21,668 bases of DNA from a virus (lineage: Duplodnaviria; Heunggongvirae; Uroviricota; Caudoviricetes): positions 1-21,668 of the IMG/VR virus record IMGVR_UViG_3300005683_000050; one strand, 5' to 3'. Both the position numbers and the translations under genes were made by a program. Below, piece by piece: positions 3,747 through 20,407 of the stretch; position 1 is the first letter of the stretch; every line of letters begins with the position of its first letter. The notes beneath the pieces are model-generated. The model did no database searches. It was given only the letters and a program-made list of their open reading frames with translations, and was not told where the DNA came from.

Positions 3747-3884
3747 CTACTTTGCTCCGCCTGCAAGAACATTTCCGCAAGCACAACATCCTACACACAA
3801 AATGTCGCACTTCCCAGTAAGGTAGTTAAATGCAAACCATGCAAACTGAAACTTTGGTTGGTGTTTACATTCGTTGTTTTTCAT
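3747..3884 (-). CDS. small Cys-rich protein (45 aa), possible zinc ribbon
   Basis: Manual translation MKNNECKHQPKFQFAWFAFNYLTGKCDILCVGCCACGNVLAGGAK, directly downstream of a consensus promoter. Confidence 0.55.
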   Translation of the reverse strand: MKNNECKHQPKFQFAWFAFNYLTGKCDILCVGCCACGNVLAGGAK

Positions 3885-3893
3885 GTCAATTCA

Positions 3894-3922
3894 ATTATAC
3901 TGTATCCGTAGGAATTTGTCAA
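3894..3922 (-). promoter_or_regulatory. sigma70-type promoter
   Basis: TTGACA-17-TATAAT on the minus strand; the -35 contains the radical SAM TGA stop. Confidence 0.88.
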
Positions 3923-4806
3923 GACATTGAACGTACATGGTGAAACATTTCAATCACATCCATTCCAATGAATGAATACCTATTTGGAGACGTAGAGTTT
4001 TTGGCATATGCGCCAAGCACGGCATCAATGTAGAATGTATATTTTCCGTCGTCTCCCATGTACATTTCTTCCCACTGACTTTCTGTCAAGAATCTCTTCG
4101 GGTCAAGTTGTTCGATTGCCAAATTGTCAAACGATACCAATGAGACATTTTGCATAATCTCGCCCAACGAATCGTACAATCCGCCATCTAGGGTGTCGAA
4201 ACTCTTTCCGCGACCCCAATCCTTGTATCCGAGAATCAGAATCTTTGCGTTTTCTCCGTAGAGCATACGAATTGTGTCAATCGAGTGGACTCGGTTAATG
4301 ACATGCAAAATCGCGTTCGGCAAAAGTAAAACATCCAACAGTTTTTTGTTGACCGTTGTGTGTAGAGAGACCCCAATTCCATATATCAACTTATCATCCA
4401 CAAGGCGACAAAGCAAGTCCAGATACTTTGGCTGCTCGGTATGAAACTGGTTTACCGTAATGTTGCAAATCACACCGTCTTCTTTTTGCCGCCGCAAAAA
4501 TTCAATGAGGTCTGGGTGGTCAAGTGGGTTTCCTCCACCAATCGCCAGTTCTTGTCCAGCGATGAATCGCGGCAGTGTTAACAGGTCGGCGTGTTTTCCT
4601 CTTACGGTTGACATTTCGTGACACCACCTGCATCCCGCGTCACAATAGTTCGTTATCTTTAGGTCTATGTTTTCCGCGTGGTTCGGAATAAATGCATCGT
4701 GCTTTGTGACTCGGATTTTTGTTCCGTCGTCAAAGAGAATGACCCTGTAGTTCCCGTTTTTATATGTTGCTAATTGGTTCATGTTTATAAGGGGACGACT
4801 TTTCAT
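3919..4806 (-). CDS. radical SAM enzyme
   Basis: CxxxCxxC (CDAGCRWC), GGGNP, NITVN and GVS motifs; no C-terminal SPASM cysteines; start uncertain (4815, 4806 or 4782). Confidence 0.9.
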   Translation of the reverse strand: MKSRPLINMNQLATYKNGNYRVILFDDGTKIRVTKHDAFIPNHAENIDLKITNYCDAGCRWCHEMSTVRGKHADLLTLPRFIAGQELAIGGGNPLDHPDLIEFLRRQKEDGVICNITVNQFHTEQPKYLDLLCRLVDDKLIYGIGVSLHTTVNKKLLDVLLLPNAILHVINRVHSIDTIRMLYGENAKILILGYKDWGRGKSFDTLDGGLYDSLGEIMQNVSLVSFDNLAIEQLDPKRFLTESQWEEMYMGDDGKYTFYIDAVLGAYAKNSTSPNRYSFIGMDVIEMFHHVRSMS

Positions 4807-4817
4807 CGTCCCCAATC

Positions 4818-5093
4818 CTATCCGTCGCCGCGCACGACACTAATCGCAAAAACCTTTCCGTATGGAGTGTCAATTGATTTAATCTCCGTACCGTCATCGT
4901 CGGTCACAAACTCTTCAAATGTTATATACCGCCATTGATTCCCTTGTGGTTTTTCTACGAATTTCTTGTCAATTCTGTCGTAGACAATCTCACCATTAAC
5001 GAATCTAGTGTAATCATCCGACATCATCATTACAAGTGTATGGGTTGAGCTGGAGTTGGTCTCAAAGGCAGATGCCCTAACATTAACTCTCAT
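4818..5093 (-). CDS. FETNSSSTH-motif protein 3
   Basis: Begins MRVNVRASAFETNSSSTH; ATGA-coupled to the upstream paralog. Confidence 0.85.
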   Translation of the reverse strand: MRVNVRASAFETNSSSTHTLVMMMSDDYTRFVNGEIVYDRIDKKFVEKPQGNQWRYITFEEFVTDDDGTEIKSIDTPYGKVFAISVVRGDG

Positions 5094-5383
5094 TGGTACC
5101 CATACTTTCCAAAGACAACAATCTTTTCACCATTAGGAGTGGTGTATTGTTTCATATACGTTTCCATCATATCGTCTGCGAAAAACTGCTCGTATGTTTC
5201 TTGCTCTGAGTAATCGTCGTCTTGCGGTTCTTGCAGTTCTTCTAACTTGTCGCCGTAAAGACCATATACATATACTTTCTTCCCTTGCTTGAACTGGTCA
5301 AACTCATCCTGCGTACAAATTGTCAATGTGTGTGTTGAGCTGGAATTTGTCTCGAATGCACTTTTTCTAATCTGGTATTTCAT
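5090..5383 (-). CDS. FETNSSSTH-motif protein 2
   Basis: Begins MKYQIRKSAFETNSSSTH; SD AGGAG; ATGA overlap with the methyltransferase stop. Confidence 0.85.
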   Translation of the reverse strand: MKYQIRKSAFETNSSSTHTLTICTQDEFDQFKQGKKVYVYGLYGDKLEELQEPQDDDYSEQETYEQFFADDMMETYMKQYTTPNGEKIVVFGKYGYQ

Positions 5384-6045
5384 ATGTCCGTCTCCTGATA
5401 ATATATCATTTCGTTCTTGTATCCTCGCTGAGCGTACTGCCTCTTCAATGGTACAAACTCCATCCAATCAGCTTTATCGTTTTCGCAAACAATAACTTGT
5501 CCGAGACGAGACTTTGACCACTCTCCCAGCGCAGGGTAATCTATTTTATTGTGAACATATCTCCGTCCTCCGTGTTGGTACGGAGGGTCAATGAACCATG
5601 TAGCGACACGATTCTCCGCGTCCATGCCATCTCCGAGAATAATATCCCAGTGGCGTATGCGATACAGGTTTTCTGCTATCCATTTTTTTCTATTCTCCCA
5701 CCATGTTTCGGCGTTGGAATAGTTTCCAGTGGTCTTGTGCGGTTTAGGAGTTCCCCTGTTTCCGCAAAAAGATACGATGTCGTTTTCGGCTTCCGTTAGA
5801 TAGGCGTGTCTTTGAATTGTCTTCCTCTTAACCGAAGGGAGTGCAAGAATGTCTGACGGACTAGCTTCTTGAAGATATTTCCATACCCTGAAAAGTCTGT
5901 CGTACTTTTCATACAGTACGACATTCTTCTCGAAGTGTAACAGAGAATACTGTGCCGACCCAGCGAAAGGTTCAATCACGGTGTCGTATTTGGGCGCGGG
6001 ATACACGGACGCAACTCTTATCTTACTTCCGTAATAGCTAATCAT
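5380..6045 (-). CDS. DNA adenine methyltransferase (Dam/D12-class-like)
   Basis: SYYGSK, EPFAGSA (SAM-binding) and DPPY (catalytic) motifs; start set at MISYYGSK. Confidence 0.85.
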   Translation of the reverse strand: MISYYGSKIRVASVYPAPKYDTVIEPFAGSAQYSLLHFEKNVVLYEKYDRLFRVWKYLQEASPSDILALPSVKRKTIQRHAYLTEAENDIVSFCGNRGTPKPHKTTGNYSNAETWWENRKKWIAENLYRIRHWDIILGDGMDAENRVATWFIDPPYQHGGRRYVHNKIDYPALGEWSKSRLGQVIVCENDKADWMEFVPLKRQYAQRGYKNEMIYYQETDI

Positions 6046-6535
6046 GGTTGTCGTTGTCAATGACGATATACGACCCTGTTCCAAAAATAAGGCTTTCCAA
6101 TTGTCGTATAAAGTCTTCCTTTTTAATTTTTGTGTCAAGGATAAAGTCGAGAACTCCTATTGACTGGTGGTCAATATATCCAAGCGAGAACAATTCGTCG
6201 GGATTCTTTAGTGGAATAAAATTTACAGAATGACCAGTCTTTTCTTCTATCATTCCCATTATCCATTTATACTGCCTTAGATTTTTCATACGACTGATAA
6301 TGGAAGACGGATTTAATCTAAAATTATTCGCGAGAGCGACCTTGTATGCCATATGGGTAAGTATGTATGACAACTTTTCAGACGGAGTTCTCAGGACTTC
6401 GTATCCCCACCCAAACTCTCCAGGGTAGATGTCCGCGTCTACGAGATACTTTTTCGCGCAATCAGTCTTAATGGTTACGGAATGCGTGGAGCTTGAGTTG
6501 GTTTCAAACGTTCCGTTGCGAATTTGAATTTTCAT
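6038..6535 (-). CDS. FETNSSSTH-motif protein 1
   Basis: Begins MKIQIRNGTFETNSSSTH; also YIDHQS and C-terminal DNDNHD; first gene after a promoter. Confidence 0.85.
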   Translation of the reverse strand: MKIQIRNGTFETNSSSTHSVTIKTDCAKKYLVDADIYPGEFGWGYEVLRTPSEKLSYILTHMAYKVALANNFRLNPSSIISRMKNLRQYKWIMGMIEEKTGHSVNFIPLKNPDELFSLGYIDHQSIGVLDFILDTKIKKEDFIRQLESLIFGTGSYIVIDNDNHD

Positions 6536-6541
6536 ACTATG

Positions 6542-6570
6542 ATTTTACACTACATTTTGAATTTTGTCAA
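6542..6570 (-). promoter_or_regulatory. sigma70-type promoter, leaderless, for the FETNSSSTH/radical SAM operon
   Basis: TTGACA-17-TAAAAT, 6 nt, then ATG 6535. Confidence 0.85.
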
Positions 6571-7084: not shown

Positions 7085-7377
7085 TGTGGAAACTCTCCAT
7101 TCAGGATACCTCTATCTGTCAATTCATCAACAACGGTTTTAATCTCGACGCCAGACATTTCTGTTCCGCCAATAAGGTTGTACAGCATTTTCCACAAAAA
7201 CTCTATCAACTCAATATCGCTCATTTTGTTTTTTGTGGATATTGCGTCTGTATCTCCAGTGAAATTGTTTCCCGACTCTAGAATCTCACGTTTCCTCTTG
7301 TTTGTGTTATATATTTCTTTCTGAATGTAATCGTCGTATAGGTCGGCAATTTCCGATTCTGTCAAAGTGTCGTTCAT
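7081..7377 (-). CDS. hypothetical protein
   Basis: SD GGAGG; ATGA overlap with the TasA-like gene. Confidence 0.7.
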   Translation of the reverse strand: MNDTLTESEIADLYDDYIQKEIYNTNKRKREILESGNNFTGDTDAISTKNKMSDIELIEFLWKMLYNLIGGTEMSGVEIKTVVDELTDRGILNGEFPH

Positions 7378-9224: not shown

Positions 9225-9253
9225 ATTGTATTACAAAAATCAGCCTTTGTCAA
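9225..9253 (-). promoter_or_regulatory. sigma70-type promoter for the operon containing the TasA-like gene
   Basis: TTGACA-17-TACAAT. Confidence 0.85.
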
Positions 9254-11114
9254 CCCGTTGAATTGTCATGTCGAGATATTGTGTAGACAAGTCAATTCCT
9301 ATATATTTTCTGCCAAGTCTGCGAGAAACAACAGCAGTTGTACCACTTCCGTTAAATGGGTCTAAAACTGTATCTCCAATATAGCAGTATAGTTTAATTG
9401 CTCGGCGCGGCAACTCTTCTGGAAATGGAGCTGGATGCCCCTTGTATCTGCCAGATGGCATAACCCATACGTTGCGCGTCATCTTCTTCATAAACTCTTC
9501 TTTTTCAAGGTCGGTCTCCCCTTTCCATAACAATTTCGGAGACCCTTTGTGCGCGACAACAATAAACTCAGACAAAGAGCGACAAGACGGATTGCTTGGT
9601 GATAACCATGAGTTTCCACACCAAGTAAATTTCCCGTTACGCTCAACATATAGCGTCTTGTTCGGAACAGACACACAATACACCATCCCGTCATAATGGG
9701 ATTTATTCACCATGCTACTTTCTATCCAGTGTGAGCTCGTGCGGTGTAGGTGTATAAGATATACAGTCAGATTGCCGTTAAATGGCTTCCCGTTGTATAT
9801 ACGAGACTTGGATTTCCTTTCTTCCAACCTGAAACCAAATCCACTCATGCGGAACAGATTCAACATTCCGTCCCTAAGAGACTTAGACGCGGTAACGTAA
9901 TGCATCCAATTTCCATTTGGTAGGACACATCCATCGCCAAGCATTATCCATTCCATGAATATCTCACGCTGGCGGTAAGATAAACCAAGTACAAAGTCTG
10001 GGAACACCCTTTCGTTTTTGCTACCAAACTGCCTCATGTAGCTAGCCAATTGTTTTGAAGAAGTAACGAATTCCCCCTTTGACTGTTTATATCTGAATTC
10101 AAACGGAAGTCGGTCTAGTAGTTTCTTAACGGAATCAAGCGTCCTATCCTTAGATTGGTATATTGACACATTATAAGAGCCATGCTCTTCCGAGTAATGT
10201 ACATTGCCATCTGTTAGGAATATGCCAAGAAAAGCCAGCCAGTCGTCCATTTCTATCTTTATTTCTGACTGCGCCGACACAATAGACTTAGAAGTGCTTT
10301 TCCCGTAATCAACTATTGGCAGGGTAAAGTAACGAACCTCGTCGCCATCCATATTTTTACCAACAGAGTGAGGAATTGCAATACCATTCCAATCTATCTC
10401 TCCTGCGGACTCAACCCAGATATTCCCTTTTCCGTCTGTGCGCGCCATGTTGTGGTCTGGTGTTACGCATATATCAACGCGTTTGTTTCTTATGTGCAAC
10501 ATGTTTCCGCGAAATGGTTTTTCTATATAATCAAACGCCTTTTGGTATTCCACATTACCGCTAGGAGATAACGTCGCAAACAGGTCTCTCTCTGTAATAT
10601 CCCTGAAGTACTTTAGACCATCAAGCGTTAGCACCCTAGTTTTATCGTCGTAACATCCCCACGCCGTATTTCCCATCGAGAAATTCTCTTCGGAGTCAAC
10701 GGCATCGTCCGCATTGGATTTTACCCACGTAATTACTTCGCGCATGGTAAATCCAGCATCCACAATGCAGTTAATCGCATATGGTAAGAATGGAATATAC
10801 GCGTCGCCCTTCTTTTTGTTTCTGCCGTTTCCAGTGTTTGGAACATTCAGAACGATTCTGCCGCTTGGCGCAAGGACTCTATACGCCTCCCTTAACCATT
10901 TTGATGTAAACGCCCAGTACTCCTCTTGGTTCATATCGTCATTGTATCCGTCATACTCTACTCCGACATTATACGGAGGGGATGTTACGATAAGTTGTAT
11001 AGATTCATCTGGGATAAGGCTTAGATTTTTTGCGCTCCCTTTATATAGGGATAATCCATCTATTGCGTAGTGTTCTACCATTCCATCCGATTGATTATAG
11101 TTTTCAGGCATCAT
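9240..11114 (-). CDS. N4-C/N6-A DNA methyltransferase (beta class) containing an intein
   Basis: TSPPY, HPAPFP and VLDPFNGSGTT motifs separated by a 348-aa insertion. Confidence 0.92.
   Translation of the reverse strand: MMPENYNQSDGMVEHYAIDGLSLYKGSAKNLSLIPDESIQLIVTSPPYNVGVEYDGYNDDMNQEEYWAFTSKWLREAYRVLAPSGRIVLNVPNTGNGRNKKKGDAYIPFLPYAINCIVDAGFTMREVITWVKSNADDAVDSEENFSMGNTAWGCYDDKTRVLTLDGLKYFRDITERDLFATLSPSGNVEYQKAFDYIEKPFRGNMLHIRNKRVDICVTPDHNMARTDGKGNIWVESAGEIDWNGIAIPHSVGKNMDGDEVRYFTLPIVDYGKSTSKSIVSAQSEIKIEMDDWLAFLGIFLTDGNVHYSEEHGSYNVSIYQSKDRTLDSVKKLLDRLPFEFRYKQSKGEFVTSSKQLASYMRQFGSKNERVFPDFVLGLSYRQREIFMEWIMLGDGCVLPNGNWMHYVTASKSLRDGMLNLFRMSGFGFRLEERKSKSRIYNGKPFNGNLTVYLIHLHRTSSHWIESSMVNKSHYDGMVYCVSVPNKTLYVERNGKFTWCGNSWLSPSNPSCRSLSEFIVVAHKGSPKLLWKGETDLEKEEFMKKMTRNVWVMPSGRYKGHPAPFPEELPRRAIKLYCYIGDTVLDPFNGSGTTAVVSRRLGRKYIGIDLSTQYLDMTIQRVDKG
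9612..10655 (-). mobile_element. intein with LAGLIDADG homing endonuclease
   Basis: Starts CYDDKTRVLT (Cys154); block B VTPDHNM; LAGLIDADG-like LGIFLTDG and WIMLGDG; ends VYCVSVP...VERNGKFTWCGN followed by +1 Ser. Confidence 0.9.
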
Positions 11115-14632: not shown

Positions 14633-14661
14633 AATATATCATATCTCTTGTTTTTTGTCAA
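14633..14661 (-). promoter_or_regulatory. sigma70-type promoter, leaderless, for PARP
   Basis: TTGACA-17-TGa-TATATT, 6 nt, then ATG. Confidence 0.75.
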
Positions 14662-15676
14662 GGGATATATGTTTTTTTAGGACTCTCCATGCTTCGCGCC
14701 CTGAGTCCTTGTTGTCCATTATCGCAAAGACAACACTGGAAATGTCGCTTGCTACACCCAAAATATATTTTGCCTTTTCGGAACGAGAACTCATTCGGAC
14801 AGTCTCGTTGTACACACCATACGCACGATTCATAATTTTGGCGTGTTCTTCATTGTAATGTCGTTCCAACTCTTTTGCCCAAGCAAAGAACTCATCTGGA
14901 AAATCGGAAAGGCTCGCTCCCATAGAAACAACCTCAAACACTCGACGCTCAGTTATTCCATTGATAAGCCTGTGCAGTCGAATGTAATCGTCTCCTTTTA
15001 TTTTTACGCGCGTGCCATCGTCGTACTTTAGTACAATACCCTCAACTCCTGGAACGTTTGCAATTGAAACTGCATCTTCGATACTTTCGATATGGTATGT
15101 GCGCGGAGTGCTAAAGTTAAGTCTTAATCCCTCTTGGAATAAAACATTATCAGAAACATCGTTACCGCTTTGGTTTTCAATAATGGCGAGCAAAACCATG
15201 TCTCGCATGTCTCCATAGTCAACAATAACCCTGTTTTCTGGATAAACTATCTCAAACAGATAGGTGTGTCCAGACATGAAGTCGTGCGAAAAATATCCGC
15301 GCCGCCGAATAAATGTTGTTGCCCATCCTGCCTGCACTGAAGAAAAAGAGCCGCGCGTTGTAACATACACTTCGTTATTCCGCACAAATAGAATTCCGAG
15401 CGAGCCATCAACCTTTTCGCTTACCGTCGGATTCCCCTTTGTTGCCAAGTATGCTTTGTCTATTCCCATCTCTCCAAGATTAAAGAACTTGCGGAATGGT
15501 CGGGCAACGACATTCCCATTGTCGTCAAGAACAAGCCCTCGCGCGGCAACAGTGTATTCATCCCACGCGCCTTGAAATTGACATTCACCCGTGTAGTTAA
15601 ATATAGTTAACGGGAGCGATGGGTGTCGCTGGTGTTTTATGAACGGGTGATTGATAAATTTCCTTATGTCTACCAT
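14639..15676 (-). CDS. RNA ligase (T4 Rnl1-like)
   Basis: ARGLV, RPFRKFFN, EKVDGSL (adenylated Lys), TRGSF, YLFE, EGIV and VKIK motifs. Confidence 0.88.
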   Translation of the reverse strand: MVDIRKFINHPFIKHQRHPSLPLTIFNYTGECQFQGAWDEYTVAARGLVLDDNGNVVARPFRKFFNLGEMGIDKAYLATKGNPTVSEKVDGSLGILFVRNNEVYVTTRGSFSSVQAGWATTFIRRRGYFSHDFMSGHTYLFEIVYPENRVIVDYGDMRDMVLLAIIENQSGNDVSDNVLFQEGLRLNFSTPRTYHIESIEDAVSIANVPGVEGIVLKYDDGTRVKIKGDDYIRLHRLINGITERRVFEVVSMGASLSDFPDEFFAWAKELERHYNEEHAKIMNRAYGVYNETVRMSSRSEKAKYILGVASDISSVVFAIMDNKDSGREAWRVLKKHISLDKKQEI

Positions 15677-15886: not shown

Positions 15887-15914
15887 AGTGGTCTGGTTTA
15901 TGCCAGACCACTGT
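15887..15914. repeat. 11-bp perfect inverted repeat across the CCA-enzyme stop codon
   Basis: cagtggtctgg-tttatg-ccagaccactg; possible terminator or processing hairpin. Confidence 0.75.
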
Positions 15915-17220
15915 CCCTAACGAACATTACCGCATCTTCTAATGTGGAAACCTTACCATCCAACTGTGCCTCAAAAACTGCATCCAAAATCGGTCTAAAC
16001 TTCGGTGAAGGCGTCATTCCGAAAATGGAAATCAAGTGCCTACCCAGAAAGATAGGTGAGGGACGACCATCAGAAACATCAATCTGATTCGCTATCCTCA
16101 GCATGTTCGCAACATCGCTCGGCTGTCCTTGCGGCAGAGGCGGACGACCACTAGAATCACACTCCATGAATAGAGCAAGCTCATTTAAGGTAGAGGGCGA
16201 AACGGAAACTGATAGACGCCTAACTGCCGCCGTTGTTTCTATGTTGCGTCGCATGTGACATCGAATCAAGGCAACGATTCTTTCTGAAAGGGCGTTCGGA
16301 AACCCAAGACGCGCGAGCAGACCAGTAGCAATATCAGCTCCAACATGCTCGTGTCCCATCGAAGCTACGTCTCCATTTTCAAACACGATAGTTGTCTCTG
16401 GCTTTCCAATATCGTGTAATAGGGCAGCCATCCCTATCACAACCGAGTCTTCGTAACTCATGTTTAAGTCAAACGCACGCTGACTCGCGTAATCCATGAC
16501 ATGCAATGTGTGAGAAAAGACATCTCCCTCTGGGTGATATTCTGCGGATTGTGGACACCCAACCATTGCCATAATTTCTGGAGGCAATGCGCCAACGCGC
16601 ATCAGCATACCCATTCCCAGACTCGGCTTGCGACTCGTTACAATTTTTGAGAACTCGGTATACAATCTGTGAGCGTTGTTCGGATTATTGAATGCAAACA
16701 TAAATTTCTCAATAATTGCAGAGAAATAATCTTCGCCAATCAACGTCATGCCATATTTTGACATAAACCGCGCAGCTCTCAGAATACGCAACGGGTCTGA
16801 CGCGAACGCAGAGCTAATCACTCTCAAATTCATGCTGTAAATATCTTCGAGTCCGCCAACTATGTCAGTGATTTCTCCGTCAATGAAAGAGTAGTACAAA
16901 GCATTTACGGTAAAGTCTCTATTGCGCGCATCTTCGCTCAAATCTCTAAACACAGAGAATTGAAAGACATCTTCGCCATCGTGTACTTCAAAAACGTTCT
17001 TTCCGTTGGATTTTAGAGAAATATCAATTACGCGCGCTCCCAAGATATAGCGCACAGAGGCAACCCTGTCGTCTCCTCCACCAACAACCACAACGTCATA
17101 GTCGTTGACAGGATAGCCCAGAACGTAGTCTCGTACAGCTCCACCAGTGATATAACAGGAATATCCCTCACGAGTGAGAGTCCTGAAAATGCTCAATAGA
17201 TTCAAAGGAATGTTCATCAT
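15898..17220 (-). CDS. cca: CCA-adding tRNA nucleotidyltransferase with HD domain
   Basis: GGAVRD...DYD, EDARNRDFTVNAL, DPLRILRAARF, YHPEGDVFSHT and LLHDIGKP motifs. Confidence 0.88.
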   Translation of the reverse strand: MMNIPLNLLSIFRTLTREGYSCYITGGAVRDYVLGYPVNDYDVVVVGGGDDRVASVRYILGARVIDISLKSNGKNVFEVHDGEDVFQFSVFRDLSEDARNRDFTVNALYYSFIDGEITDIVGGLEDIYSMNLRVISSAFASDPLRILRAARFMSKYGMTLIGEDYFSAIIEKFMFAFNNPNNAHRLYTEFSKIVTSRKPSLGMGMLMRVGALPPEIMAMVGCPQSAEYHPEGDVFSHTLHVMDYASQRAFDLNMSYEDSVVIGMAALLHDIGKPETTIVFENGDVASMGHEHVGADIATGLLARLGFPNALSERIVALIRCHMRRNIETTAAVRRLSVSVSPSTLNELALFMECDSSGRPPLPQGQPSDVANMLRIANQIDVSDGRPSPIFLGRHLISIFGMTPSPKFRPILDAVFEAQLDGKVSTLEDAVMFVRDSGLA

Positions 17221-18853: not shown

Positions 18854-19221
18854 AAAAATCAGATAAATTAAAGATAGACCGAATCATTGCAAAAATTCAA
18901 AAAGATTTCAGGCAATTTGGATGGGAATACACTTGGGGGATTGACCCAAAAGTAGAAATCGAAGCTGACATCAAAATAGACTTTACCAGAAAGAAAGCTC
19001 ACATCTCATTGAAACCGCCACTGCCGCCACGCAAAAAACTAATTCGCATCATTGCACACGAAATGATGCACACTGTCATTGAACCAATCTGGCGCGGCAT
19101 GTCTGACTGGGCATGGATTAATATGCGCCCCAAGACATACGAAACATTTGCTGAATCAGTTAACACTCGCGAGAATGAAGTCATAGAAGCGTTGCTAGAC
19201 ATAATGGGATATGATTATTAA
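18850..19221 (+). CDS. HExxH zinc metallopeptidase-like protein
   Basis: IIAHEMMH plus a downstream Glu (NE..E). Confidence 0.65.
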   Translation: MKKSDKLKIDRIIAKIQKDFRQFGWEYTWGIDPKVEIEADIKIDFTRKKAHISLKPPLPPRKKLIRIIAHEMMHTVIEPIWRGMSDWAWINMRPKTYETFAESVNTRENEVIEALLDIMGYDY

Positions 19222-20407
19222 AGATAATGCCATTGACGGAATTCGCAAATTAAAGCATCTCGGAAAATTCGTACACTCTGGTGTTGTGTCTCCGCCATAT
19301 CTTTGGAAACAAGATTATGGAATTGGAGACTATGTTTGGGAAGTACGCGGTCATCCCCCTTGTGAACACGAATTCAGTGGCAGAGTTTCTGTCGGACATA
19401 ATCTATGGGGAGTGTCCTTTAGGCGCAGCCAAATGTGGAGAAACGCACAAATCTGTTCTTTGTGCGGAGCGTGGAAAGGACAGTTAGGGCAAGAGCCGAT
19501 TCCAGAAATGTATATCGCTCATTTGGACAATGTGTTTTACGAATTCTACGATATACTGCGTGACGACGGGACACTATGGGTTGTCATCGGAGATACTGCG
19601 ATTAGCGCAAAGTCGCGTTACTCGACAAAAAACGATACGATTCTCGGAGGGGGTCGCCACGACGCAAAGTTGGGTGCAATGCAAGACGGAATGAAGCCAG
19701 ACCTAGTTGGACAGTCCTATTTTTCTGACGGGGCAATGGCGCAAATTCCAGCAATGCTTGCAGACAGAATGCAAAGGGGTAAGTGGACACTACGTAGCCA
19801 TATTGTATGGTACAAGAGAGTGCATAAGCCAGAGTCTGTTGTGGGATGGCAATGGGACAGACACGCTGTTAACAATATCCCGTGTGATGGATGCTCCAAG
19901 TGCGACAATGGATTTATCCTCAAAAGAAATAATGGTAGGCCTACAATTGCAACAGAATCCATCTTAATGTTCAGCAAGAAGAATTCAAGATATTTCTTCG
20001 ACACCGATGCTGTAAGAGAAAAGAATGTGTCGAAAGACAAGAATAATAATCCATTTGGGAAGAACGTCAGGAATGTGTGGGAGATTGCACCGTCCCATCA
20101 TCGAAAGCATTACGCTACGTTTCCAGAGGAACTAGCAAGGAGATGTATTCTAGCATCAACCTCTCCTGCTGTTTGTTCCAATTGCGGGACTCCATACGCG
20201 CGCATCAGAGAATTAGACAAATCCACTGTGGGATGGAGGGCATGTTGTGATTGCGTCGGATTTACAACATCCAAGTCTGTCGTGGCTGATTTCTTTGGCG
20301 GCAGTGGCACAACCCCATTTGTGGCTAGGAAAAACAATAGAGAATATCTGTATATAGAGCCAAGCGAATTGTTTGTCAATATAATGCAGGACAGGATGAA
20401 TAGATGA
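19211..20407 (+). CDS. N4-C/N6-A DNA methyltransferase (beta class) with Cys-rich insertions
   Basis: SPPY, HYATFPEEL and DFFGGSGTT motifs; CxH/CxxC, CxxCxxC and CxxC...CCxC inserts. Confidence 0.88.
   Translation: MIIKDNAIDGIRKLKHLGKFVHSGVVSPPYLWKQDYGIGDYVWEVRGHPPCEHEFSGRVSVGHNLWGVSFRRSQMWRNAQICSLCGAWKGQLGQEPIPEMYIAHLDNVFYEFYDILRDDGTLWVVIGDTAISAKSRYSTKNDTILGGGRHDAKLGAMQDGMKPDLVGQSYFSDGAMAQIPAMLADRMQRGKWTLRSHIVWYKRVHKPESVVGWQWDRHAVNNIPCDGCSKCDNGFILKRNNGRPTIATESILMFSKKNSRYFFDTDAVREKNVSKDKNNNPFGKNVRNVWEIAPSHHRKHYATFPEELARRCILASTSPAVCSNCGTPYARIRELDKSTVGWRACCDCVGFTTSKSVVADFFGGSGTTPFVARKNNREYLYIEPSELFVNIMQDRMNR

Follow-up and report, generated by a model that had tools for sequence, protein, structure and literature searches.

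A small phage radical SAM enzyme and its tagged neighbours: a candidate enzyme-plus-client module built on an N-terminal FETNSSSTH motif

Why should three phage proteins that diverge almost everywhere else begin with the same short motif, and why should their genes be clustered with one for a radical S-adenosylmethionine (SAM) enzyme? The question is posed by a stretch of DNA from a virus of the class Caudoviricetes (positions 1 to 21,668 of IMG/VR record IMGVR_UViG_3300005683_000050), the whole of which, 21,668 nucleotides, we refer to as ‘the window’. Five closely coupled genes on its minus strand encode, in order, a protein with the motif FETNSSSTH close to its N-terminus (P1), a DNA methyltransferase, two more proteins with this motif (P2 and P3), and the radical SAM enzyme (rSAM). 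We call the motif, with the conserved residues around it, the ‘tag’. On balance, we consider it probable that rSAM and the tagged proteins form an enzyme-plus-client module, in which the enzyme recognizes the tag of P1, P2 and P3 and acts upon it. Judged from sequence, the enzyme–tag pair is probably an unrecognized route for chemically marking or activating whole proteins. The genes and motifs concerned are as follows (aa = amino acids).

6038–6535, minus strand: P1, tagged protein of the long class, 165 aa
6482–6508, minus strand: tag FETNSSSTH of P1, residues 10–18
5380–6045, minus strand: D12/Dam-like DNA methyltransferase, 221 aa, ATG at 6045
5090–5383, minus strand: P2, tagged protein of the short class, 97 aa, with the C-terminal sequence TTPNGEKIVVFGKYGYQ
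5330–5356, minus strand: tag FETNSSSTH of P2, residues 10–18
4818–5093, minus strand: P3, tagged protein of the short class, 91 aa
5040–5066, minus strand: tag FETNSSSTH of P3, residues 10–18
3919–4806, minus strand: rSAM, radical SAM enzyme with a single [4Fe-4S] motif, 295 aa
4621–4644, minus strand: CxxxCxxC cluster-binding motif CDAGCRWC of rSAM, residues 55–62

An earlier note on this DNA had laid out these five genes, and on re-reading its order and coordinates proved correct. Arg6 and FETNSSSTH at residues 10–18 are indeed common to P1, P2 and P3. The note had added that the motif copies use different synonymous codons while the remainder of the proteins diverges, and both statements hold. 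Within the 27-nucleotide motif all codon differences are synonymous, and they affect eight of the nine codons between P1 and P2, four between P1 and P3, and five between P2 and P3; outside the tag, the three proteins are 26–33% identical. The complete 149,668-bp phage genome contains exactly three tagged open reading frames (ORFs) and one rSAM of this clade, and the repetition of the motif is thus not a matter of chance.

How widespread, and how constant, is the tag? As carried by P1, P2 and P3 it reads M-K-x-[IV]-R-x-x-x-F-E-T-N-S-S-S-x-H-S. With the P1 family as query, 80 viral loci were gathered, and they contain 163 motif-bearing ORFs, in which the arginine at position −4 and all of FETNSSSxH are invariant (163 of 163); glycine occupies position −2 in 92 of the 163, and no glycine is invariant in the tag. 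The motif phenylalanine lies 8–9 residues past the initiator methionine in 155 of these ORFs. The tagged proteins are whole proteins, 90–320 aa in size, with just 8–9 residues ahead of the motif. When a 32-position profile of the tag region (the first 32 residues) was compared with 1.84 billion representatives of clusters at 50% identity, at least 7,455 of them matched at E≤1e-3, of which 1,027 reached E≤1e-10, and nearly all of the top 150 matches began at residue 1 or 2. Beyond the tag, constancy gives way to variety. Sorted by profiles of the post-tag region, 407 unique tagged proteins divide into a long class (194 proteins, P1-like), a short class (118, P2/P3-like) and 95 that fit neither, many of which resemble divergent relatives of the two classes. 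The long class has the conserved blocks GEFGWGYE, (E/D)KLSY (LSYxLT in P1), GYIDHQS and IIDNDNH; the short class is acidic in its middle and has a hairpin, TTPxGDxVVAFGYYGYD, at its C-terminus. Neither class is obligatory across loci. The tag is therefore the sole constant element across two or more distinct protein families.

The tag also stands apart in the predicted structure of P1. The AlphaFold 2 (AF2) model has an overall pLDDT of 86.6; residues 1–30, which hold the tag, score 54–68 and have no secondary structure, and the rest scores above 90, so the tag is the only low-confidence, unstructured portion of the model. The folded remainder resembles little that has been described. The only PHROG match of the three proteins is that of P1 to phrog_28997, a family without an assigned function (E 1.2e-9), and none of P1, P2 and P3 has a match in Pfam or NCBIfam. 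No solved fold emerged for P1 from Foldseek against the PDB (best E 0.1) or from VIA-align against 48,161 chains (best Z 3.8). More than 500 homologues of P1 are detectable, and Pfam recognizes no domain in any of them. Nor did 31 representatives of the long tagged proteins, scanned against Pfam, give anything significant. A search for longer homologues yielded eight proteins that likewise lack Pfam domains; four are the rSAM fusions described below. In the ESM Atlas, P2 matches hypothetical clusters only, and P1 hypothetical viral clusters only, apart from one in which the Tad2-like domain is fused. This cluster has 62 members, 97% of which carry the domain, and its TM-score to P1 is 0.68. 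A 261-aa tagged relative (locus L027, 9229–10014) likewise ends in a Tad2-like domain (PF11195, a Thoeris anti-defence family; 33.6 bits, cutoff 25); P1, P2 and P3 themselves do not match PF11195. Three further ideas, the SGNH/GDSL hydrolase blocks, the HxT/S motifs of 2H phosphoesterases and the nucleophile motifs of the alkaline-phosphatase superfamily, were dropped, since motif spacing or the predicted fold did not fit.

If the tag is the constant element among the clients, rSAM is the constant element beside them. When the ORFs of the 80 viral loci were clustered, the only conserved families were the tagged proteins (80 of 80) and rSAM (73 of 80); the next reached 19 of 80. Where the tag genes have 3 kb or more of flanking sequence on each side, rSAM adjoins them in 62 of 67 viral loci and in 45 of 49 loci of genome assemblies from bacteria and archaea, mostly metagenome-assembled genomes (MAGs) from gut and rumen. 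The five viral exceptions have it at another place in their own record (E 1e-91 to 1e-125). The earlier note had said that motif proteins commonly occurring without the enzyme would count against its proposal; the counts go the other way and favour the link. The linkage also runs the other way: all 80 viral loci centred on rSAM, which are closest relatives and partly redundant, carry one to four strict tags, on the same strand and with a median gap of 37 bp. The co-occurrence of tag and enzyme clade that the earlier note had proposed to test holds in both directions. The stoichiometry of the genes varies, with one to nine tagged genes for each rSAM gene.

Some pairs are joined outright. Four proteins of 501–520 aa, from different sources (P0272–P0275), start as a tagged P1-like domain and continue as rSAM (E 1e-100 to 1e-106 for the rSAM part), and retain FETNSSSTH at residue 10. 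L058 and L059 have the opposite order, with rSAM continuing in frame into a tagged domain; in L058 (8115–9476, 453 aa) the tag is internal and has no methionine ahead of it. That fusions exist in both orders suggests that the two are direct partners, whether physically or in function. A complex prediction of the kind that the earlier note had proposed, made for rSAM and P3 together with SAM and the 4Fe-4S cluster, is consistent with this. The three runs scored 0.59, 0.72 and 0.57 (median 0.59, best control 0.01), agreed in at least 59% of contacts, and gave the partner a pLDDT of at least 49; the verdict was ‘weak support’. The mark that was reached is attained by 58 of 80 solved complexes and by two of 110 mismatched pairs, and scores of 0.60 or less include only seven of the 80 solved complexes and both of the mismatches that pass. 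Because gene linkage is itself a strong prior, we count the score as modest support for binding between rSAM and P3, and not for chemistry.

What kind of enzyme is rSAM? It matches the radical SAM family PF04055 at 29.5 bits, exactly the cutoff (29.5), and phrog_16999 at E 2.2e-48. The cysteines C55, C59 and C62 are invariant among 41 homologous sequences, and a GGE-like block, AIGGGNP, is conserved. The AF2 model (pLDDT 94.1) begins with a three-stranded sheet, residues 11–33. The model shows no helices there; the PqqD-like recognition element (RRE) of enzymes that mature RiPPs (ribosomally synthesized and post-translationally modified peptides) is a leader-binding winged helix of three strands and three helices. 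No RRE of Pfam or NCBIfam matches, and the sheet falls within the structural alignments to SkfB and SuiB given below. The earlier note had remarked that there is no SPASM domain, and rightly so: the cysteine cluster of SPASM/twitch domains is absent, and rSAM ends at residue 295 with only two cysteines besides those of the SAM-cluster motif. At least 12 homologues have no cysteine outside that motif at all. In one subclade the cluster loop has an insertion, giving Cx12CxxC (L027, 7492–8433; L040, 9058–9996; L062, 10399–11325; and relatives), and these enzymes accompany the 261-aa tagged proteins with the Tad2-like C-terminus. A similar cluster-loop insertion occurs in some QueE enzymes. Compared as a profile with the sequences of the PDB, rSAM gave weak, generic matches (best E 4.9e-4). 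The model is more informative: it has a partial TIM-barrel fold, with Z of 12–18 to many solved radical SAM enzymes. The best matches are SkfB (Z 17.9, root-mean-square deviation (rmsd) 3.5, 254 residues aligned) and SuiB bound to SuiA (Z 17.3, rmsd 3.7, 270 aligned), followed by EpeE (15.6), the viperins (14.9), anSMEcpe (13.2) and PFL-AE (10.1); the SkfB and SuiB alignments extend into the N-terminal domain (model range 11–295). As far as a model can tell, the closest solved structures are thus peptide-modifying radical SAM maturases. In one locus (L060, 13606–15144) an unrelated Cys/Tyr-rich N-terminal domain (YNKNS..Y..YG.RGI) is fused to, or read through into, rSAM. This domain also occurs free (L056, 2478–3059; L076, 8602–9345), and may be an insertion resembling a homing endonuclease.

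A sister system gives the pairing of enzyme and tag an independent context. A related tag, MKIRxDFVTNSSSSSF, occurs in 126 ORFs of the 80 viral loci fetched with it, and about 34 of these 80 loci encode a radical SAM/SPASM enzyme of about 360 aa (A3 profile, E<1e-4). Over residues 19–289 this enzyme is homologous to the rSAM of the window (hhalign probability 97.6%, E 4.7e-12). Like the tag of the window, the sister tag is invariant, has a TNSSS core, and lies at the very start of several diverse phage proteins whose genes are neighbours; unlike it, it lacks the invariant Glu and His of VFETNSSSxHS, and its Arg register differs by one residue. Both enzymes have an N-terminal extension and share motifs (sister and window, respectively: ALGG.GDP and AIGGGNP; FDS and FDN; SMYID and TMYID). 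The sister enzymes have C-terminal tails of the CxxCx5CxxxC type, whereas the window enzyme is without the Cys-rich SPASM/twitch domain, through loss or because it never had one, and its clade has other residues in place of the bridging cysteines (FDSC of the sister becomes FDNL, and CEGGR becomes GDDGK). The two enzyme–tag pairs never mix, even inside one genome. No FETNSSS tag is present in the 80 sister-tag loci, and at least two phage contigs carry both systems in separate places (L210 and L264 on IMGVR_UViG_3300027374_000478; L214 and L298 on IMGVR_UViG_3300005460_000028), which suggests two orthogonal enzyme–tag pairs in one genome. That each type of enzyme keeps to its own type of tag is what co-evolution of enzyme and substrate, or of enzyme and ligand, predicts.

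How might the enzyme act? In the mechanism that we favour, the first strand of the tag (MKxQIR) would dock on rSAM, probably against the N-terminal three-stranded sheet, much as peptide substrates do on RiPP maturases, and the Ser-rich loop would enter the lateral opening of the barrel that holds SAM and the [4Fe-4S] cluster. The 5′-deoxyadenosyl radical would then take a hydrogen from a residue of the tag, most likely Thr12 or one of Ser14–16, and leave behind a covalent change that the clients need in order to function. Since there is no auxiliary cluster, and no conserved cysteine outside the SAM-cluster motif, the most plausible changes are a carbonyl (formylglycine-like), a dehydration, which would be redox-neutral, or a cross-link within the tag. 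Were a serine oxidized to a carbonyl, the electron would return to the SAM cluster, as in dehydrogenation of the DesII type. The F-x-T element of both types of tag recalls the aromatic-x-x cyclophane motifs of triceptides.

What would the change be for? The clients are most likely accessory or counter-defence proteins, a role suggested by the Tad2-like fusion, by the rapid variation in copy number and sequence between phages, and by the neighbouring nucleic-acid genes. A more specific proposal, which we regard as possible though doubtful, is that the tag serves as a transferable, genetically encoded site at which radical chemistry makes a protein-derived group, and that phages use it to arm their fast-evolving counter-defence proteins. 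The group might be a Ser-derived carbonyl or pyruvoyl-type moiety, a dehydro residue or a strained cross-link, and its installer a SPASM-less radical SAM enzyme acting on folded proteins.

Several considerations weigh against modification of the tag by rSAM and against the purpose just outlined. Beyond gene linkage each step is one that we infer: the binding mode, the site, the chemistry and the purpose. rSAM does without the auxiliary clusters that nearly all known peptide-modifying radical SAM enzymes use, and since it has none, and many members have no extra cysteine either, the known chemistries are not directly transferable. The complex score is a weak pass of a prediction that came without a contact list, and the one-to-one fusions would equally fit an enzyme of two subunits. 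Many clients that look unrelated probably belong, as divergent members, to just two superfamilies; the tag, in that case, need not be a portable peptide and could instead be the core that a domain conserves. The counter-defence role, finally, is drawn from context and from a single domain fused in a subset of the clients.

There is a different account, to which we give a minor but real chance: that the tag is an unmodified docking handle, and that the tagged proteins are interchangeable subunits or adaptors which present various substrates (small molecules, nucleotides or nucleic acids) to rSAM as a common radical-generating core, or use its product. Natural one-to-one fusions of P1-like proteins and rSAM would fit such an arrangement; the polar blocks of the long class (E40, W43, D122-H123-Q124-S125 and D160-N-D-N-H) resemble a ligand-binding or active site; one client subclass has a Tad2-like, nucleotide-binding domain fused to it; auxiliary clusters, usual in peptide modifiers, are missing from the enzyme; and a weak complex pass (0.59 against 0.01 for the control) fits binding without chemistry. 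Set against this, a pure docking peptide rarely needs nine residues kept invariant across thousands of clusters, and an invariant Thr-Asn-Ser-Ser-Ser looks more like a core that reacts or is recognized than like an interface. Clients of the short class, at about 90 aa, have little room in which to bind a substrate, and the best structural neighbours of rSAM modify the bound peptide itself.

Less probable still is that the tag is autonomous and that rSAM is linked to it in some other way. The tag might be self-processing, with cleavage at Ser-Ser or Asn-Ser yielding a pyruvoyl group or an N-terminal nucleophile, or it might be a sorting signal. The strict N-terminal position and the Asn-Ser/Ser-Ser core do resemble autoprocessing sites, and the internal proteins of phage T4 are a precedent for diverse proteins with a common short N-terminal peptide, in that case for capsid targeting. 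This account, however, leaves the near-obligate two-way linkage, the fusions and the co-variation of tag and enzyme unexplained, and no protease or capsid gene is conserved nearby in the 80 viral loci. Weakest, and in our view very unlikely, is that rSAM is an activase that installs a protein radical or a radical-derived cofactor, the long class being radical enzymes and the short class spare parts like GrcA/YfiD: its small size and single cluster, as in PFL-AE and NrdG, one motif on large and mini proteins as in PFL and GrcA, and carriers mostly from anaerobic gut and rumen phages and MAGs speak for it, but the tag has no invariant glycine (position −2 is Gly in only 92 of 163), a stable backbone radical on Ser or Thr has no known precedent, PFL-AE (Z 10.1) is structurally more distant than SkfB and SuiB (Z 17–18), and the module occurs in phages of oxygenic Microcystis, where an oxygen-sensitive radical would be a liability.

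We return, then, to recognition or modification of the tag by rSAM, the core of what the earlier note had proposed. The two-way linkage, the fusions, the weak complex pass and the maturase-like structure together make a strong comparative case for it. The five-gene operon fares less well as the unit of the system: the tag genes and rSAM are conserved together, but the methyltransferase lies outside. A homologue of it was found in none of the 80 related loci, on which ground we rejected it as a member of the module and regard it, being absent from 80 of 80, as a passenger in the operon of this phage. That it is a methyltransferase is indicated by phrog_56 (‘DNA methyltransferase’, E 1.3e-7), by sub-threshold or marginal matches to PF02086 (E 9.6e-4; 19.4 bits, below the cutoff of 22) and TIGR00571 (E 0.016), and by the motifs YYGSK, EPFAGS and DPPY in its translation.

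The genes of the operon are tightly packed. P1 and the methyltransferase overlap by eight nucleotides, the methyltransferase and P2, and P2 and P3, overlap at ATGA junctions, and P3 and rSAM are separated by 11 nucleotides. Two promoter-like sites frame the group:

6542–6570, minus strand: sigma-70-like promoter TTGACA-17-TAAAAT, 11 of 12 matches, the best site upstream of P1
3894–3922, minus strand: promoter-like site TTGACA-17-TATAAT, 12 of 12 matches, overlapping the rSAM stop codon

The first site ends six nucleotides ahead of the ATG at 6535, a spacing consistent with a leaderless transcript. The single leaderless promoter that the earlier note had described is thus backed in its position; as for the sites themselves, those in the region total no more than is expected after shuffling. 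The second site is, by its position, the apparent 3′ limit of the operon. A 45-aa ORF (3747–3884, minus strand) has its ATG nine nucleotides past this site. It would be another unit with almost no leader, and starts with little or no leader may be habitual in this phage.

Several other genes of the window concern nucleic acids. PHROG matches at 1383–2162, 9240–11114, 14639–15676, 15898–17220 and 19211–20407 identify genes for nucleic-acid modification and repair, namely a nucleotidyltransferase, two more DNA methyltransferases (the window has three, that of the operon included), an RNA ligase like T4 Rnl and a tRNA CCA-adding enzyme. The neighbourhood of the operon looks like a region of counter-defence and RNA repair. 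A 270-aa ORF at 7374–8186 matches phrog_4285 (‘transposase’, E 1.9e-29). At 119–194, on the plus strand, ARAGORN places a gene for tRNA-Cys (GCA), for which the tRNA-Sec model scores best within its Rfam clan (54.6 bits, cutoff 47). This gene overlaps the 5′ end of ORF 78–725, whose HNH endonuclease domain extends from residue 46 on; since the domain begins only there, the true start of the ORF probably lies past the tRNA.

Where else is the module found, and what would it mean? Among cultured phages it is present in the Microcystis phage Ma-LMM01 and relatives (NC_008562.1; L335, 4085–5891), in which the tagged protein, gp130, begins MLSIQVRQGVFETNSSSTHS, and rSAM is gp128, two genes away and annotated ‘Fe-S oxidoreductase’. 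Since the host of this cyanophage is oxygenic (and forms blooms), the module is not confined to strict anaerobes. Prevotella phage Lak-B7 (L336, 6001–9300), one of the Lak megaphages, has rSAM followed by four tandem tagged ORFs, and many other gut and rumen phages carry the module as well. If the tag is modified, these proteins would make up a very large and undescribed family of radical post-translational modification, performed on whole proteins rather than on small peptides, by a minimal single-cluster enzyme that manages its chemistry without the auxiliary clusters thought important for most such reactions. If the tag should also be a portable site for a protein-derived group, it would represent protein cofactors of a new class, installed by an enzyme, and a new, general system of tag-directed modification. 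The scale (at least 7,455 clusters), the one to nine copies and the Tad2-like fusion suggest an unrecognized layer of accessory or counter-defence biology in phages. A tag of about 20 residues that is read by a small enzyme could, moreover, become a tool for protein engineering, and gp128 and gp130 of Ma-LMM01 offer a test system from a cultured phage.

Full-text literature searches for the tag motif, for its core together with radical SAM, for radical SAM enzymes described as phage-encoded, and for radical SAM together with phage Tad2 gave no paper; the main text of the Ma-LMM01 transcriptome paper (PMC5780444) does not mention gp128–gp130, and a nucleotide search of GenBank phages gave no match. 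Several known systems resemble this one in part. The RiPP maturases with an N-terminal domain for peptide binding (SkfB, PDB 6efn; SuiB with SuiA, PDB 5v1t; CteB; EpeE) share with it the placement of the enzyme gene beside one or more substrates that have a conserved motif. They differ in possessing SPASM/twitch auxiliary clusters and a canonical RRE fold, in place of which the window enzyme has no more than its three-stranded sheet, and in that their substrates are short leader-plus-core peptides and not whole proteins. The sulfatase-maturating enzymes (anSME/AtsB) are alike in a different respect: one radical SAM enzyme acts on a Ser or Cys within a short, invariant, near-N-terminal motif of many paralogous, folded clients, and the structural likeness to the window enzyme has a Z of 13.2. 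They use two auxiliary clusters, however, and recognize (C/S)-x-(P/A)-x-R, neither of which applies here; this motif is not in the tag, which has no Pro/Ala-x-Arg after any Ser, and the clients of the window are not sulfatases. In the PFL-AE/PFL/GrcA system, too, a small single-cluster enzyme is paired with an invariant motif common to large enzymes and mini-proteins, but that motif is C-terminal and centred on glycine (RVxG[FWY]-type), the tag has no invariant Gly, and PFL-AE is a distant structural match (Z 10.1).

The nearest idea in print is a prediction, made like ours from genomic context, that concerns the VMAP ternary conflict systems of bacteria (Kaur, Burroughs, Iyer and Aravind 2020, PMC7159879). 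There, a radical SAM-SPASM enzyme is encoded beside conserved C-terminal FxSxx peptides, and is predicted to modify this motif on variable conflict partners. The C-terminal location of the motif, the processing by a peptidase, the SPASM domain, the bacterial setting and the association with vWA-MoxR and AP-ATPase components distinguish those systems, and none of these features is found here. The module of the window would belong to the same broad company, as a radical SAM enzyme with cognate, motif-bearing clients, and would be set apart within it by how minimal the enzyme is and by clients that are whole proteins.

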